The notes below the pieces were generated by a model that made no database searches, was not told where the DNA came from, and was given only the letters and a program-made list of their open reading frames with translations. Both the position numbers and the translations under genes were made by a program. A DNA stretch of 64,000 nucleotides, from positions 1 to 64,000 of the IMG/VR virus record IMGVR_UViG_3300032893_000763, one strand, 5' to 3'. Every line of letters begins with the position of its first letter. Within the stretch, counting starts at the first letter, position 1. The stretch is from a virus. This document shows positions 4,309-40,414 of the stretch, in pieces.

Positions 4309-5916
4309 GAACGCCTCTTGAGCCTGCGCATCTCGCGGTTGCTCGGTGTGATGTTCGCGCCCTGCTTGCGCCCGCACCGGCAGGTGATGACGGAGACACG
4401 CTTGCCGTCGATCACGGCCGTGTAGAGCGTCTTCGGGTGCCGCCGTGCAGCGCAGTAGATCGCGTACAAGAAGTTCGGGAGCAGCTTCTCAACCACGGCG
4501 GACATCGCGGATTGTGGGTCTGTCACGGCTTGAGCACCTCCGCGCGGTTGATCTCGACCATGAACAGGTCGGGCGCACCTTCGGTGCCGATGACTAGCCA
4601 GCGATGGTCGCCCAACCAGATGAGCAAGTCACCTTCGCCAATCTCCTTGCGCAGCGCGCCCTCGATCCACTCGGCGTAGCCGTCGAGAACGGCATCCGCG
4701 CCCCACTCCGGCTTTTTTGCGGCCGACGGTTCGCGCTTCACTTCGCCACCACCTTGCCGCAGCGGCGGCACGTCTTGAGGATGCCCTTCGCGCCGATGTC
4801 CCATAGCGGAGGGGACACTCGGCGGATCTGCCAGTCATGCCGGAACGGCAGACATCTTTTCGCGGCCTCTGATGTGCGAGACGGGTCAGGCATAGATCGT
4901 CACCGCCATCCGCGTCGGCTCCGTCGCCGTGTATCGACCCGGTTCCGCGTACAGCGCCGCAGTCGCGCGGGCAGGCTGCGCGGCGAGATCAGCCTTGGTC
5001 GGCTTCCGCTTCCTCGCGGCCGAGCGGTCGGGTGCGTTCAACGTCCCCACCGTCGATCCACACGACGCCCCTGGACTGCGACGATGCCTACCGCGACGAG
5101 CGCGACGATGAGCACGACAGCGCAGACGATGTAGTCGAGCATCACGCACGACCCTTCGCGGCCTTGGAATGGTCTGAATCAGCCGACACGCTCGACCTCC
5201 TGCCCGATGTTGCCGTTGTCGAGCCGGACGAGCTTGTGCGTCTCACGGTGGACGCGGTAGCCGTCGTTCCACAGCCGCTCGTAGAGATCGGCAGCGTGGG
5301 ACTCATCGTTCGCGTCGATGACGACCTTGTGCGTGGTCATCATCACGCGCTTGTTTGCGGCCTTATCTATGGGTTCGCTGCCCGAAGTCGGCGGAGGCAA
5401 AGGGGGAGCCTTACGACCGTTCGCGGCCTTGGAGGGGCCGCGATCACAACTCTGTCCGCTTTCAATCATGCGCTTACTGTAGCCGAGCCGCTCCGAGTTT
5501 GCAAGTGCCGCCGCCCGCGCCCGGCACGGCGATCCACGCACGTACCGCACGCCTCGGTGTAGTTCGACTGCTCGGTGCCGCACTCGGAGCAGCGGGGCTC
5601 AACCTCGTGGATGCGCGACGGCATGAGGAAGTGTCCCTGCGTCCGAAGCTCGTGCAGGCGGCGGGACGTGCGCCGCGCGATGCGCTGCTTCGACTTGTTC
5701 GTCTCCACAGGCACCGCGCGGAATGAGTCCTTGGTGACGAACCTATGCACGCTTGATGGTGCGAGTGATCGCGGGCTCGGTGACGACGCCCTCCGTGCAG
5801 ATGCGGGCGAACCTCGGCCAGTTGAGCCGGAGCGTGCCGGGCCGACGAAGGCGTGCGAGCCGGACGTGCTTGACGCCGTGCTCCTTGCGGATGCTGCGAG
5901 CCTTGGTGGCGTTCAT
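4305..5916 (-). other. Array of small translationally coupled hypothetical genes, some with CxxC pairs
   Basis: Overlapping start/stop ORFs such as 4305-4526, 4886-5149 and 5466-5750. Confidence 0.55.
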
Positions 5917-36496: not shown

Positions 36497-36876
36497 TCAT
36501 CGGTAGTTGGAGAGCGTCTCGCGCTCCCACGCTGCGACCTCCAGGCATCCGCCGGGGTCGTCGTGGATCGCGCAGCGGCGGCAGTAGCCGCACGGCTTCG
36601 GGGGGTGGCGCTTGACGAAGCCGACGCTCATGCACTGGAAGGTGTCCGAGCCGATCACGAGCAGGTCACCGACGCTCATGCTCGGGAGCCGGTAGCCGAT
36701 GGCCTCAAGCCGGTCGGCGTCGGCCTCGGTCACGCGGTTGAAGAACCGGAAGGCGTCCTCGGGGCTCATCGCCGGGAGGGAGCCGCTCCACTCGGTCGCC
36801 CGCGTGGGGCGGCCTCCTGGATGCGCGAGGCAATCGCGGAGACGACAGTGATGTGGGTGTTCTGTGAAGTGGTCAT
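36497..36876 (-). pseudogene. YodL-like hypothetical gene with apparent frameshift near 36815
   Basis: Promoter-defined MTTSQNTHITVVSAIASRIQE continues in the -1 frame as GRPTRATEW...SMSVGDLLVI. Confidence 0.5.
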
Positions 36877-36928
36877 GTTCACAGTATCGGCCATATTCAC
36901 AGGTGTTGTGAATCACCCGAAAGAGTGA
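36874..36928 (-). promoter_or_regulatory. Tripartite leaderless promoter, copy 6
   Basis: TCACTC-TTTC-GGGTGA, 21 nt, GCCGATACT, ATG at 36876. Confidence 0.75.
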
Positions 36929-36931
36929 AGA

Positions 36932-37009
36932 TGCGGCGGCGCGGAGCGGGCCTCGAACCCGCAACCTCCGATGCCTCGGGCTCTACCTCTTGAGCTACCC
37001 GCCCGCCGC
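36932..37009 (-). ncRNA. tRNA-like RNA lacking an anticodon loop
   Basis: TA-GCTC-AAGAGGTA-GAGC D arm, GCGGG-TTCGAGG-CCCGC T arm, CCGA-GGCA-TCGG mini-arm, 12-bp bulged acceptor stem. Confidence 0.7.
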
Positions 37010-37059
37010 GTGCCGGTTGCACCCCGGCGGCGTCAGCCGGGAAGGAACCGGAAACCCTA

Positions 37060-37385
37060 TGGAGCCGGTGGGAATCGAACCCACGTCCGAACAGGTGGTG
37101 CGCTGGAAGTTGATAGCAGCTTCTTGGGGGCATGTGCCCTCCACCAGGGCAGCCGTCTCTCCGGCTCCGTAGTCCGCTCGTCTCTCCGAGCCGTCCTTCG
37201 CGTGGTGCCCTACGCGAACGAGGGAGCGAAGGCCGGGGACGCAGGCACGAGGCCCTTGATCCACGACTTCGCCGCGACGATCAGCTTGGTGATCGCACTT
37301 GACGTTGCCCTCCGGGCCGGTGCGGTAGGCCGCAACCCGCTGCCTTCTCACGTCCGTTCCTATCCGTCGAAGCCAGGTCGGCCCC
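37060..37385 (-). ncRNA. ssrA: tmRNA
   Basis: 5' GGGGCCGACCTGGCTTCGAC, 3' GGACGTGGGTTCGATTCCCACCGGCTCCA, G3:U70 pair, tag ORF 37210-37296, own TACACT promoter. CCA not encoded. Confidence 0.92.
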
Positions 37386-37409
37386 GCGAGAGAGTGTAGC
37401 ACCCTCACG

Positions 37410-38185
37410 GGAGCCCCCGGCTCGATCTCAAGCGCATCTCCCTCTGTGCTGTGGTAGGTGCGGGCGTCGTGTGCGGCAGACTTGAAGCGAGTGGACTAGA
37501 GAGTCCGATGCTCCGTCGTCTCTACCACTCTACGGTTTTAGTCGAGGGCTCGCCGTACGCCCCCTTCCTCCCGCGTTACTCCGCCACACCGTCTAGGCGA
37601 TGCGCCATTCCGCGCCTACCATCGAGGTCTAAAGCGATGCACCAAGCGGGAGCGCAGCACCACGGCTCGCGTGCGCCGCGACTAGTGACACGTCGAAGGG
37701 AACTCTGCAAGCCCTGAGTGGCTCGCTTCCAATCGGTGTGCGACCTCGTACGTCCGTGCTGGCCGGGCTCCCGCTTGATTCCTACGAGACTTCCTCAAGT
37801 GTCCGCCACGCCGTCCTCTCTCGCCTACCCTACCCGTTCGTGCGCACTCCCGGTTACTCTCGGCTTGAGACTCTGACGCTTTACTGTTTCACTCGCCCGT
37901 ACGCCTCATCCTCGTACACCCTTCGTTCAGGGGTCGCCCTCGGTCTTCGCTGCTAGCCGGGGTCGTGGTCGTTAGCCGTCAGGGGTGTAGTCAACGGTGT
38001 GCTGGACGGTACCTCGCAGTGGCGGGCACTGGAGGAAGTCTCGTGAGTCTTCATCCGCGCGACCGTAGTCTGCTCCTTCGCGGTGGAGACAAGTGATAGA
38101 GGGGAGTTCCGCCTTCCGGCCAGTTTCCCGTATCCGCTTGCAAGCACATCATCGGGCCGAAGCCCCAAGCCTGCAATCCCTCGTA
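37410..38185 (-). ncRNA. Candidate giant structured ncRNA (~780 nt)
   Basis: TTGACG-N18-TAGGAT promoter (38192-38221), no credible ORF, long-range stems (37784-37809 with 38019-38044; ~37641-37653 with ~37767-37779). 3' end approximate. Confidence 0.7.
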
Positions 38186-38217
38186 CGAGTGATCCTACTG
38201 GATTCGGGAAGGTTCCG

Positions 38218-38781
38218 TCAAGAGAGCGGGCAGACGTTGCCGACCTGCACGGGCTTGTAGTCCGTGATCTCCACGCAGACGTTGATGTACGTCTTGCCGG
38301 GGATGAGATGGCCGTCGTGCTCGGTCGGGTCGTTCGAGGGCCGCATGATGTTCTGATGCGTGTGGCCGTGGATGTTCGTGTGCCACCACTCGACGCCGAT
38401 GCCGGTCGAGCCGCGAGACGGGCCGGGGAACTCGACGGAGATCGGCCGGTGCGTGAAGGCCACGCCCTTGCGGATGAACTCGGGGATGATGGTGAAGCCC
38501 GCCTTGGCGTAGAGGTCGCTCTCGGGCTTGTCATGGTTGCCGAGGATCAGGTACTTGCGGCCGGGCAGGCGCGAGACGACGGCAGCCCACCGCTCGGGGT
38601 TGCCCTGCTTGCCCATGAACACGTCTCCGAGATGGAGGATGTCGTCCTCCTCGCCCACGTACTTGATCCAGTTCGAGAGCATGATGACCTCGTGGCTCTC
38701 GGGCCGCGCCTGGAACTTGATGATGTTCTTGTGGCCGAAGTGCGTGTCCGAGATGAGCCACGTGCGGTTGGCGATCTTCAC
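38218..38781 (-). CDS. Calcineurin-like metallophosphoesterase
   Basis: SDTHFGH, LGDV, GNHD, THRP, HGHTH. Confidence 0.9.
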   Translation of the reverse strand: MKIANRTWLISDTHFGHKNIIKFQARPESHEVIMLSNWIKYVGEEDDILHLGDVFMGKQGNPERWAAVVSRLPGRKYLILGNHDKPESDLYAKAGFTIIPEFIRKGVAFTHRPISVEFPGPSRGSTGIGVEWWHTNIHGHTHQNIMRPSNDPTEHDGHLIPGKTYINVCVEITDYKPVQVGNVCPLS

Positions 38782-38790
38782 ACCCCTAGC

Positions 38791-39231
38791 CTAGCGCATA
38801 GGCTGCGCGAAGACCACGAGGCGGTACGTCGCCGTGAACGGCGGGGTGCAGGTCGTGAGCACGAGACGTTCGTGCCCGACATCTTGAAGGGGCGCTGCGT
38901 CCGTCGGCGCGATGACTTCGCTGCCTGTGACGGAGTACGCCGTGGTACGTCCGGCGACTCGCAGGAAGATGCGAGCGCCTCGACGCAGGCGGTCGAGGAA
39001 GCGGAAGGGGCCATGTCCGCCGAATCCAGGCACAGGCGTCACCCGGTGTCCAGCGATGGCGATGGTGCAAGCGCATCCGGGCCGTCCCGATCCGGGGTAG
39101 AAGCCGGGGCCGTGCGCGAGCACGGACTCCCCCACACCCTCCCGCACAACGGTGCGGATGCCGAGCGCCGGAATCGTGAGCACCGGAGCCGGTGCAACGA
39201 TGGCGGGAGGGGTGGGAGGAGTCGCGTGCAT
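38791..39231 (-). CDS. Sortase (class E-like) without N-terminal membrane anchor
   Basis: LTIPALG...EG...L..GPG.Y...AGHRVT...PFR.LD.L..G...LVLTTCTP...RLVV supplies the His/Cys/Arg triad. Confidence 0.85.
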   Translation of the reverse strand: MHATPPTPPAIVAPAPVLTIPALGIRTVVREGVGESVLAHGPGFYPGSGRPGCACTIAIAGHRVTPVPGFGGHGPFRFLDRLRRGARIFLRVAGRTTAYSVTGSEVIAPTDAAPLQDVGHERLVLTTCTPPFTATYRLVVFAQPMR

Positions 39232-39235
39232 CGAG

Positions 39236-40414
39236 CTACTTGGTGTAGGCCAGCTTCTTCGGCTTCTTCGCCTTCGGCTTGGCCTTGGCCTTCGCAGCCG
39301 TCACCGGCTTCTGCGCGACCGGGTGCCACGCCTGTGCCGTCTCGGGCTTGACGCAGACGAGCGCCCCCGCGAGGTTGAGCGTGAACACGTAGCCGACCGG
39401 CGGCGCAGACTGCACGCCGTCGATGTTGACGCAGATGTCCGGCGTCGTGCCGTCAGCACCGGCAGGCCCGGCAGGCCCCTGCGGCCCGGCAGGCCCGGCA
39501 GGCCCGGCAGGCCCGGCAGGCCCCTGCGGGCCAGTTGCGCCCGTAGCGCCCGTCGCGCCGTTGGAGCCGTTGGCACCCGGAGCGCCGTCCTGGCCGTTCT
39601 GGCCGGGGCAGACGACCGTCGGATCACCGATGTTCTCGTCACCGTTGACGACCTGGATCACGGCACAGCCGCTCTCATCGGTCGAGACGACGACGCTGTT
39701 CCCGTTCTGGCCGGGAGCGCCCTGCGGGCCGGTGTCACCGGGCACGCCCTGCGCACCGTCCTGTCCGTTCGCGCCGTTGGAGCCGTTGCAAACGAACTGT
39801 TGATCGACCCGCTCACCCGAGGCGTCGTACACCTGGATCGCAACTCCGCCCGTCGTGGCGCAGACATCGCCACCCTCACCGGGGCCGAACGTCACGGTGG
39901 TCACCGTGTCGCCGTTCGTCCCGTTGGTGCCGTTCGTCCCGTTGGTGCCGTTGGTGCCCGGTGCGCCCTGCGGCCCGGCAGGCCCCTGCGGCCCGGCAGG
40001 CCCCTGCGGCCCCTGCGGCCCCTGCGGCCCCTGCGGCCCCTGTGCCCCGCACGAGGTCATCGTGGTCGTGCCGTACGAGGCCGACCCCGAGTTACCGTCG
40101 CGTGTGGAACCGGAAGTCCACGAAGCCGAGGCCGCGAGCTTGTCCCCGTTCACGAGCGTCAGCGAGATGGTGTCCGTCGCGCTTGAACCCGTGAAGGAGA
40201 ACTGCTTGGTCACGGCGGAGCCGCCGTTGACCGTGTAGGACTCGGTGATCGTGTTCTTGCCGCCGTTGCCCGACCCATGCGAATCGAACGCAGCGTACGA
40301 GTAGGTCAGGGTCGTACAGTCGTACGTGATCGTGCCGTTGTGCGCCGAAGCCACAGCGGCGAACACGCCAAACGCAGCGATGACCGCTGCGATGGTACCC
40401 ATCAACTTCTTCAT
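39236..40414 (-). CDS. Secreted collagen-like protein, probable sortase substrate
   Basis: Signal peptide ending ASA-H, three Gly-X-Y tracts separated by Cys-pair modules, Lys-rich linker, C-terminal LAYTK. Confidence 0.85.

Follow-up and report, generated by a model that had tools for sequence, protein, structure and literature searches.

Between a metallophosphoesterase gene and a transfer-messenger RNA (tmRNA) gene of a phage from the IMG/VR collection (record IMGVR_UViG_3300032893_000763) lies a non-coding stretch of DNA, and the question is what this stretch encodes. The window analysed here consists of the first 64 kb of the 93.8-kb record (66.6% GC, 100% complete according to CheckV); all positions refer to it and all features of the locus are on its minus strand. 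A first-pass annotation made from the sequence had described the stretch as a promoter-driven structured RNA of ~780 nt, of the size of the giant phage RNAs GOLLD and ROOL and possibly of a new class. We report that the segment 37784-38044 probably belongs to a family of non-coding phage RNAs of ~220–400 nt that had not been filed before. That this family is a real family of structured RNAs we regard as close to certain. It has a conserved, strand-specific and covarying structure, occurs in more than 100 distinct environmental copies and ~200 copies from cultured phages, is absent from Rfam 15 and is accessory to the genomes that carry it. From the initial description, a structured RNA stands, here placed on the minus strand, but its length does not, the conserved unit being 261 nt and not ~780.

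A stem-closed unit in the non-coding stretch

The absence of coding bias noted at first was borne out: GC content by codon position shows no frame bias from ~36950 to 38217, next to a flanking metallophosphoesterase gene with a GC content at third codon positions of 0.95, and a Pfam search for remnant genes among the stop-to-stop open reading frames (ORFs) of the stretch gave zero matches. The ~26-bp stem proposed earlier was located at 37784-37809 and 38019-38044, with 24 of 26 positions (92%) complementary and 209 nt between the arms. As an inverted repeat of 26 nt it scores 19, whereas 300 dinucleotide shuffles average 9.4 and reach at most 14. The second proposed stem (37643-37658 with 37762-37777; 16 nt, 88% complementary, 103 nt enclosed) is part of the minimum-free-energy fold, and local hairpins are present as described, e.g. 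a UUCG-capped one within 38045-38191. Folded as a whole, the 805 nt reach an unremarkable energy (z = -1.3 for the minus strand). Therefore, the case for an RNA rests on homologues and not on thermodynamics.

Several searches returned no homologue. A cmscan run with all 4227 Rfam 15 families (gathering thresholds for the whole window, E ≤ 10 for 36500-38800) reported only the tmRNA and a tRNA-like element, and neither GOLLD, ROOL, introns nor RNase P. Zero matches were obtained by blastn of 845 nt against GenBank phages at E ≤ 1e-5 and by an exact search for an arm of the closing stem, here called P1, in IMG/VR. With the metallophosphoesterase and a 155-aa ORF as queries, no syntenic relative was found in IMG/VR; tblastn of the metallophosphoesterase against phages yielded distant matches only, and its closest homologues sit on Logan contigs.

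A homologous segment was reached in a phage of 146.6 kb (G006) through a tmRNA-derived pattern, at a distance of 38 kb from the tmRNA of that phage. The match covers exactly the interior of the 26-bp stem of the window (76% identity, E 7e-18), and the segment is closed by a 23-bp stem of its own, which is 96% complementary and wholly unlike the window stem in sequence. Since the interior is conserved and the stem sequence unrelated, what is conserved is a stem-closed unit, the stem of which is kept by pairing and not by sequence.

Two blocks are identical in the window phage and G006. One of them, the 17-mer GACGGCTAACGACCACG, is present in 24 IMG/VR loci, and the 19-mer CUGACGGCUAACGACCACG was found in 76 JGI contigs from soil, freshwater and marine metagenomes. 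Among 16 matches of the 17-mer in a collection of species-representative genomes one was real, an Acidimicrobiales contig from a metagenome-assembled genome (L055) that is identical to IMG/VR copies; the other 15 were rejected as chance matches, the other blocks being missing. Another block, GGGAGTGCGCACGAACGG, recovered only G006 when used as a search key, plus a chance match in coding sequence (L023). The core, searched by blastn at E ≤ 10, matched 205 GenBank records, all of them Mycobacterium or Mycolicibacterium phages; the matches listed measure 153–157 kb. No cellular homologue was found in 151 sampled Actinomycetota genomes, a weak test in which few candidates were scored per genome.

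The covariance model R1 was built from relatives, with 24 training rows that include the window sequence, which itself scores 169.8 bits (E ~5e-45) over model positions 1–233 and 37797-38031 of the window. Sequences outside the R1 training, 45 in number, score 65–188 bits. There is exactly one copy in the window phage. Taken together with the full 26-bp P1, the element extends over 37784-38044 (261 nt), as delimited by R1, the homology to G006 and the family alignments; the total length of members ranges from 223 to 406 nt.

The Bixzunavirus phage Yucca reaches 100.7 bits with R1, and its locus (L140; KX721255.1, 21.3–21.8 kb; L140:2498-2713) matches only at model positions ~13–144. The same part of R1, corresponding to the 5′ domain, is all that is matched in a subgroup formed by L068, L078, L084, L094, L098, L101 and L139, in which the 3′ domain, as judged from these alignments, is different or much expanded. 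A 406-nt copy of the L028 type matches R1 in full, but with only 92.9 bits. These results correct the annotation of several GenBank Bixzunavirus records, in which the RNA region is either left without annotation or placed under coding sequence (CDS) features for a ‘hypothetical protein’ that are probably mis-calls.

Secondary structure, covariation and the palindromic loop

Alignment A3, for which 24 trimmed and non-redundant members were aligned by plain MAFFT and which was not fitted to any structure, supports the helices P1, P2a/P2b (long-range, closing the 5′ domain), a short P2c, P3, P4 and P6. Standard pairs make up 88.9% of the cells, as compared with 64.4% after column shuffles and 35–43% when the partner was slid by 1–3 columns. 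Compensatory double changes were seen in 33 of the 41 modelled pairs, and not one of 500 shuffles reached any of these measures. The best-supported helices are P3 (double changes in 7/7 pairs, 95% paired), which in the window joins UACACCC (37983-37989) to GGGUGUA (37915-37921), and P2a (5/5). For the covarying P2 helices 2 and 3, 95% and 93% of the cells are paired; their 5′ strand at 38005-38020 is composed of ACUGC (P2a), GAGG and UACCGUC (P2b) and pairs with GGGCGAGUG, AA and ACAGU at 37883-37898. The variable hairpin P4 (37935-37965; helix 6) covaries as well (e.g. CG:15 / UA:9), with a conserved base CG-A-C ... G-CG, a variable tip and a length of ~14 to ~110 nt among members.

Two junction strands face each other between P3 and P4 and are essentially invariant in the collected members. 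In the window these are J3/4, CUGACGGCUAACGACCA at 37966-37982, with invariant columns in the alignments A2 and A3, and J4/3, ACCCCUGAACGAA at 37922-37934, for which the family consensus is A(U/C)CCCUGAA(C/U)GAA. Unlike the CUGACGGCUAACGACCA strand, this second strand was not a search key.

With 178 G-U or U-G pairs versus 76 A-C or C-A pairs, only the given strand can fold, which is the minus strand in the window. This result is relevant for another reading of the locus, in which it would be an element at the DNA level (an origin, a recombination or packaging site or a miniature transposon) and the pairing that of a cruciform or of single-stranded DNA. Inverted repeats of 26 bp that are 209 bp apart look like terminal inverted repeats, and presence or absence of the element differs between close relatives. 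However, the arms vary completely and the interior is conserved, the opposite of transposon ends; no second genome copy and no target duplication was seen, the internal helices covary, only one strand can fold by the count of G-U pairs, and promoters on the sense strand are enriched upstream. A DNA-level element is thus very improbable.

The hairpin P6 of the 3′ domain, with a loop that is self-complementary over 6–8 nt in the family, is found in the window as CCGGGAGUGCGCACGAACGGG (37833-37853) and presents the loop GA-GUGCGCAC-GA, with the palindrome GUGCGCAC at 37840-37847. A perfect palindrome of at least 8 nt exists at this aligned place in 49 of 63 distinct members versus ~10% of shuffled loops. 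Its sequence is GUGCGCAC in 20 members, GUGGCCAC in 11, GGUGCACC in 5, GCGGCCGC in 4 and GCUGCAGC in 2, and there are further ones such as GAUGCAUC and GUUGCAAC. Positions 2 and 7 of the palindrome are occupied by UA (37), CG (8), GC (6) or AU (3), positions 3 and 6 by GC (36) or UA (13), and the adjacent centre bases are GC in 28 and CG in 20 members. Because these adjacent bases are unable to pair in one chain, the simplest reading is a symmetric intermolecular duplex, i.e. a kissing-loop homodimer, and on the strength of this pattern two RNA copies probably dimerise through P6. The same argument from covarying palindromes, with GC/CG swaps of adjacent bases, has been made for the symmetric kissing loops L9.3 of OLE and L21a of GOLLD and agrees with cryo-electron microscopy structures (PMC12286853).

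Tandem, diverged copies of the RNA ~40 nt apart occur in two phages (L083:4925-5158 and 5197-5422; L088:2144-2370 and 2412-2644), and L105 (1-100 and 1485-1709) was also entered among the two-copy phages. The tandem copies in L083 and L088 have one palindrome per phage, and related phages differ in it (GCGGCCGC versus GUGCGCAC).

The closing stem P1 of the window has the arms ACGAGACUUCCUCCAGUGCCCGCCAC (5′, 38019-38044) and GUGGCGGACACUUGAGGAAGUCUCGU (3′, 37784-37809), defined by the inverted repeat and the shuffles. It was searched for in the 75 of 83 distinct copies that had enough flank, and a P1 score of at least 12 was obtained for 53 of these. The arms have a median length of 25 nt (range 12–40) and 46 different starts, and their sequences are unrelated. 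In 19 of 78 members versus 1.8% of controls, P1 starts with the motif GA[GC]AAC[TC][GC], exemplified by UUGACAACUGAA, which resembles UUUGAGAACUGCACAG...GAGCAUC directly upstream of the 23S ribosomal RNA (rRNA) of Amycolatopsis; the motif is missing from the window's own P1.

Two loci show particular arrangements at P1. In L025:3776-4150 (identical to L047, L055 and L119) the sequence of the 3′ arm also makes up the 5′ half of a tRNA-like element, the T arm of which, GGGGTTCGAACCCCC, lies ~50 nt downstream. The P1 fold and the tRNA-like fold are mutually exclusive as they share this arm, which suggests a possible switch or processing signal. Directly after the RNA of L046 a segment (L046:10330-10510, minus strand) starts with TTGACAACCGAAGAACGG, the motif that opens many closing stems, and may be a second, different stem-closed RNA.

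Extent, genomic setting and mode of action

The genes around the element are arranged on the minus strand in the order collagen-like gene (39236-40414, preceding the sortase in the phage structural region), sortase (38791-39231; Pfam Sortase, E 2e-23), metallophosphoesterase (38218-38781; Pfam Metallophos), ~830 nt of non-coding DNA, tmRNA and tRNA-like element. The tmRNA (37060-37385) adjoins the stretch directly downstream, as had been noted before; it was called by ARAGORN and by Rfam (46.7 bits, E 8e-17) and is context, outside the RNA family. Its score compares with an Rfam cut-off of 47, and the tag given by ARAGORN is odd, with 28 aa. The tRNA-like element just 3′ of it (36938-37004; Rfam tRNA 28.4 bits, cut-off 29) has normal acceptor, D and T arms and a shortened anticodon region.

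Two complete relatives were found via the capsid protein, G001 (92% capsid identity) and G002 (62%), and the RNA is nowhere in either genome. Its absence from two complete related phages makes it an accessory module. G001 has kept the tmRNA, but the metallophosphoesterase gene and the non-coding stretch (window 37386-38781) are both missing, and the gap from sortase to tmRNA is only ~336 nt (L013:5311-5646). The collagen-repeat gene and the sortase (38791-40414) are both kept in G001, where the sortase is followed by the hairpin GAATCCCTC...GAGGGATTGCA and ~300 nt of unrelated spacer; a remnant of this hairpin sequence sits after the metallophosphoesterase gene in the window (38171-38181). The tmRNA of G001 (L013:4985-5310, minus strand) is 78% identical to that of the window and was missed by ARAGORN. 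A -10-like hexamer of the form TANNNT stands 6–7 nt 5′ of the mature tmRNA in both phages (TACACT in the window phage, TAGAGT in G001), so that the tmRNA need not rely on a promoter further upstream.

Proximity to tmRNA, to which the first-pass annotation had drawn attention, is not a trait of the family: a canonical tRNA or tmRNA was found by ARAGORN within 2.5 kb in 4 of 101 loci, and a loose T-arm motif showed no enrichment (15/83 loci downstream, 11/83 upstream). Likewise, there is no conserved neighbour protein, the largest cluster being DUF932 in 6 of 82 loci, and the ORFs downstream of family members are unrelated to each other.

The promoter-like sequence TTGACG-N18-TAGGAT is indeed present at 38221-38192 and overlaps the metallophosphoesterase stop codon. 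It is a putative sigma-70-like site with 9 of 12 matches, and two such sites occur in the 2.1 kb scanned versus 0.2 expected. Between this site and the element lies a leader of 147 nt (38045-38191) with local hairpins, which may be part of the primary transcript, and between the element and the tmRNA a spacer of 398 nt (37386-37783) that holds the second stem and a further closed domain. Neither segment has a homologue in ~130 family loci or an R1 match with filters off. Going by this lack of conservation, the remaining ~550–570 nt of the stretch are lineage-specific spacer and leader, outside the conserved RNA. The fold of the spacer is more stable than that of any of 100 shuffles (z = -2.75) and comprises two domains with long-range closing stems. 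The spacer may be a structured RNA confined to this lineage, or it may belong to a long precursor.

These data can also be read as one giant functional RNA of ~780–830 nt that extends from the promoter at 38221 to the tmRNA, with the conserved 261 nt as its core domain. Such a molecule would fit the sole consensus promoter at 38221-38192, the lack of a terminator-like site before the tmRNA and the two well-folding domains in the downstream 398 nt, and some relatives have tandem copies or further structured-looking RNA after the element. Yet the flanks are without counterpart in the ~130 family loci, in relatives promoters and ORFs that begin 15–40 nt after P1 delimit the element, the gap between sortase and tmRNA in G001 is only ~336 nt, and the tmRNA has its own -10-like hexamer. 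A giant RNA is therefore improbable, and the GOLLD- or ROOL-like size assigned at first could not be upheld for a family whose members are often directly flanked by their own promoter and by unrelated ORFs.

For the stem-closed unit of 261 nt, the following course from transcription to function can be envisaged. The RNA would either have a promoter of its own or form the leading part of a longer transcript; stringent sigma-70-like sites were found on the sense strand within 130 nt upstream in 11 of 50 members versus 2.9% of control windows. In the window, the transcript could start at the 38221-38192 site and perhaps continue into the tmRNA. The RNA would then be excised at P1 by an RNase specific for double strands, for instance RNase III, as rRNAs are released from processing stems. 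Excision of this type, suggested by the analogy to rRNA processing stems and by the rrn-like motif, might equally well apply or not. Two copies would pair loop-to-loop to give a symmetric dimer, or tandem copies would be joined, and the RNA would act in trans, with the invariant junction as the binding site for a highly conserved host or phage macromolecule. Our confidence in a trans-acting binder of a conserved partner falls slightly short of even. More tentatively still, the family could represent a new class of ‘ornate’ phage RNA, in which an rRNA-like processing stem and a kissing-loop homodimer or tandem link are combined with a 30-nt junction that captures a universal host component of translation, transcription or RNA processing.

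Several observations weigh against this interpretation. Promoter use, the ends of the RNA and its cutting by RNase III are predictions. In the window, 147 nt separate the nearest upstream consensus promoter from the closing stem, a greater distance than in those relatives that were examined by eye. The 26 bp of the window P1 contain two mismatches on the minus strand (C-U, C-A), compared with one mismatch and a G-U on the plus strand. Taken by itself, the element has an unexceptional folding energy (z = -1.8), and the 3′ domain outside P6 shows little covariation. All homologues were collected via one exact 17/19-mer, by which diversity is under-sampled and divergent members are missed; as this block was the search key, its invariance is partly built in. 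Furthermore, many members have a co-oriented ORF with a ribosome-binding site 15–40 nt after P1, an arrangement that fits a cis-acting leader equally.

As regards the mode of action, the chief alternative is a cis-acting 5′ leader, which would regulate, stabilise or anti-terminate the ensuing transcript, for instance as an RNase III-gated or put/nut-like element. Such a leader is in line with the upstream promoter plus adjoining co-oriented ORF with ribosome-binding site in L021, L027, L028, L034, L038 and L043, with the rRNA-operon-leader-like 5′ arm of P1 in a quarter of the members and with the location of the element ahead of the tmRNA in the window. But the genes downstream are mutually unrelated, and behind some members lie non-coding DNA or tRNA-like elements instead. 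Tandem copies exist, and a covarying palindromic loop together with a 30-nt invariant junction is unexpected for a simple processing or anti-termination signal. On balance we consider a cis-acting leader rather unlikely.

Comparison with known RNAs

Large and highly conserved RNAs of bacteria and phages whose function is unknown are rare, and OLE, GOLLD, ROOL and raiA each opened new biology. The family described here shares features of RNA machines, namely a block of 19–21 nt that is invariant across phages of 49–71% GC from soil, freshwater and marine habitats, compensatory variation in the main helices and a covarying loop palindrome that predicts quaternary structure. At ~260 nt it is small enough for structure determination. 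Its presence in ~200 cultured Bixzunavirus mycobacteriophages, which can be engineered, makes its function genetically dissectable in M. smegmatis; for GOLLD or ROOL, a phage and host of similar tractability were not encountered in the sources consulted.

Could the element nevertheless be a divergent member or a fragment of a known RNA, such as GOLLD, ROOL, the mRNA-like domain of tmRNA, a 6S-type RNA, RNase P or a mimic of the 23S rRNA 5′ domain? It is phage-borne and adjoins tmRNA and tRNA-like genes in the window, GOLLD likewise has a covarying symmetric kissing loop, the block GCUAACGAC resembles the start of a tmRNA tag, and there are short resemblances to 23S domain I by eye. However, cmscan with permissive filters returned no Rfam 15 family for the element at E ≤ 10 and none for six other members at E ≤ 0.01, so that the suggested kinship to GOLLD or ROOL is not supported and the alternative suggestion, a possible new class, stands. 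The models for group I and II introns, RNase P RNA, 6S RNA, HEARO, OLE and raiA were not matched either. GOLLD is characterised by ~800 nt and a conserved 3′ region of many helices (P1–P27), as against the 261 nt conserved here, and ROOL, an RNA of ~580 nt with multiple pseudoknots, likewise differs in size and gave no model match. Neither ARAGORN nor Rfam (RF00023 and the permuted forms) recognised the element as tmRNA. The frame after GCU is not conserved, and the 151 sampled Actinomycetota genomes gave no match. We consider an origin from any of these RNAs scarcely credible.

Three more specific ideas were examined and rejected. A tmRNA tag (GCU AAC GAC CAC GAC = ANDHD) lacks both a frame and an end that are conserved, and the sequence continues into a covarying hairpin. 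As a check on a 23S rRNA mimic, R1 was run with filters off on the 5′ two-thirds of an actinobacterial 23S rRNA (Amycolatopsis), where the best score, 10.3 bits, fell on an internal position instead of the 5′ end. By eye, the invariant block is complementary to the 3′ part of 16S rRNA over 7+5 nt and to the tmRNA of the phage over 7 nt, which was judged to be within chance.

No description of this 220–400-nt RNA or of its palindromic loop was found in the papers searched. A screen of IMG/VR intergenic regions for covarying motifs reported 8,495 unnamed candidates of 29–151 nt (Fremin et al., Comput Struct Biotechnol J 2023; PMC10690425). Fragments of the family may be among these csRNA candidates, which are set apart by their description, as unnamed motifs of 29–151 nt, from the 220–400-nt architecture presented here.

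In its closing stem, the element resembles the pre-rRNA processing stems that are cut by RNase III around 16S and 23S rRNA, in that a long duplex of 5′ and 3′ sequences encloses a structured RNA; unlike there, the interior is not rRNA-like, and cleavage at P1 is putative. For the loop, the dimerisation initiation site (DIS) of human immunodeficiency virus 1 (HIV-1) provides a parallel, since homodimerisation of that RNA is mediated by a hairpin loop in which purines flank a self-complementary core of 6 nt (GCGCGC or GUGCAC). Both loops are self-complementary and flanked by purines, here as GA-GUGCGCAC-GA. They differ in that the DIS serves the packaging of a retroviral genome, whereas the palindrome here is mostly of 8 nt and belongs to a small non-coding RNA of double-stranded DNA phages.

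A further comparison is with GOLLD (RF01998) and ROOL (RF03087), which are likewise encoded by phages or prophages, are protein-independent ‘ornate’ RNAs and are sometimes located near tRNA or tmRNA genes. The symmetric kissing loops of GOLLD (L21a) and of OLE (L9.3) carry the same signature as the P6 loop (PMC12286853). In contrast to the ~580 to >800 nt of GOLLD and ROOL, whose models do not match, the family described here measures ~260 nt in the window and has an architecture of its own, in which a single long duplex closes the RNA, the junction is made of two invariant strands and one loop is palindromic.

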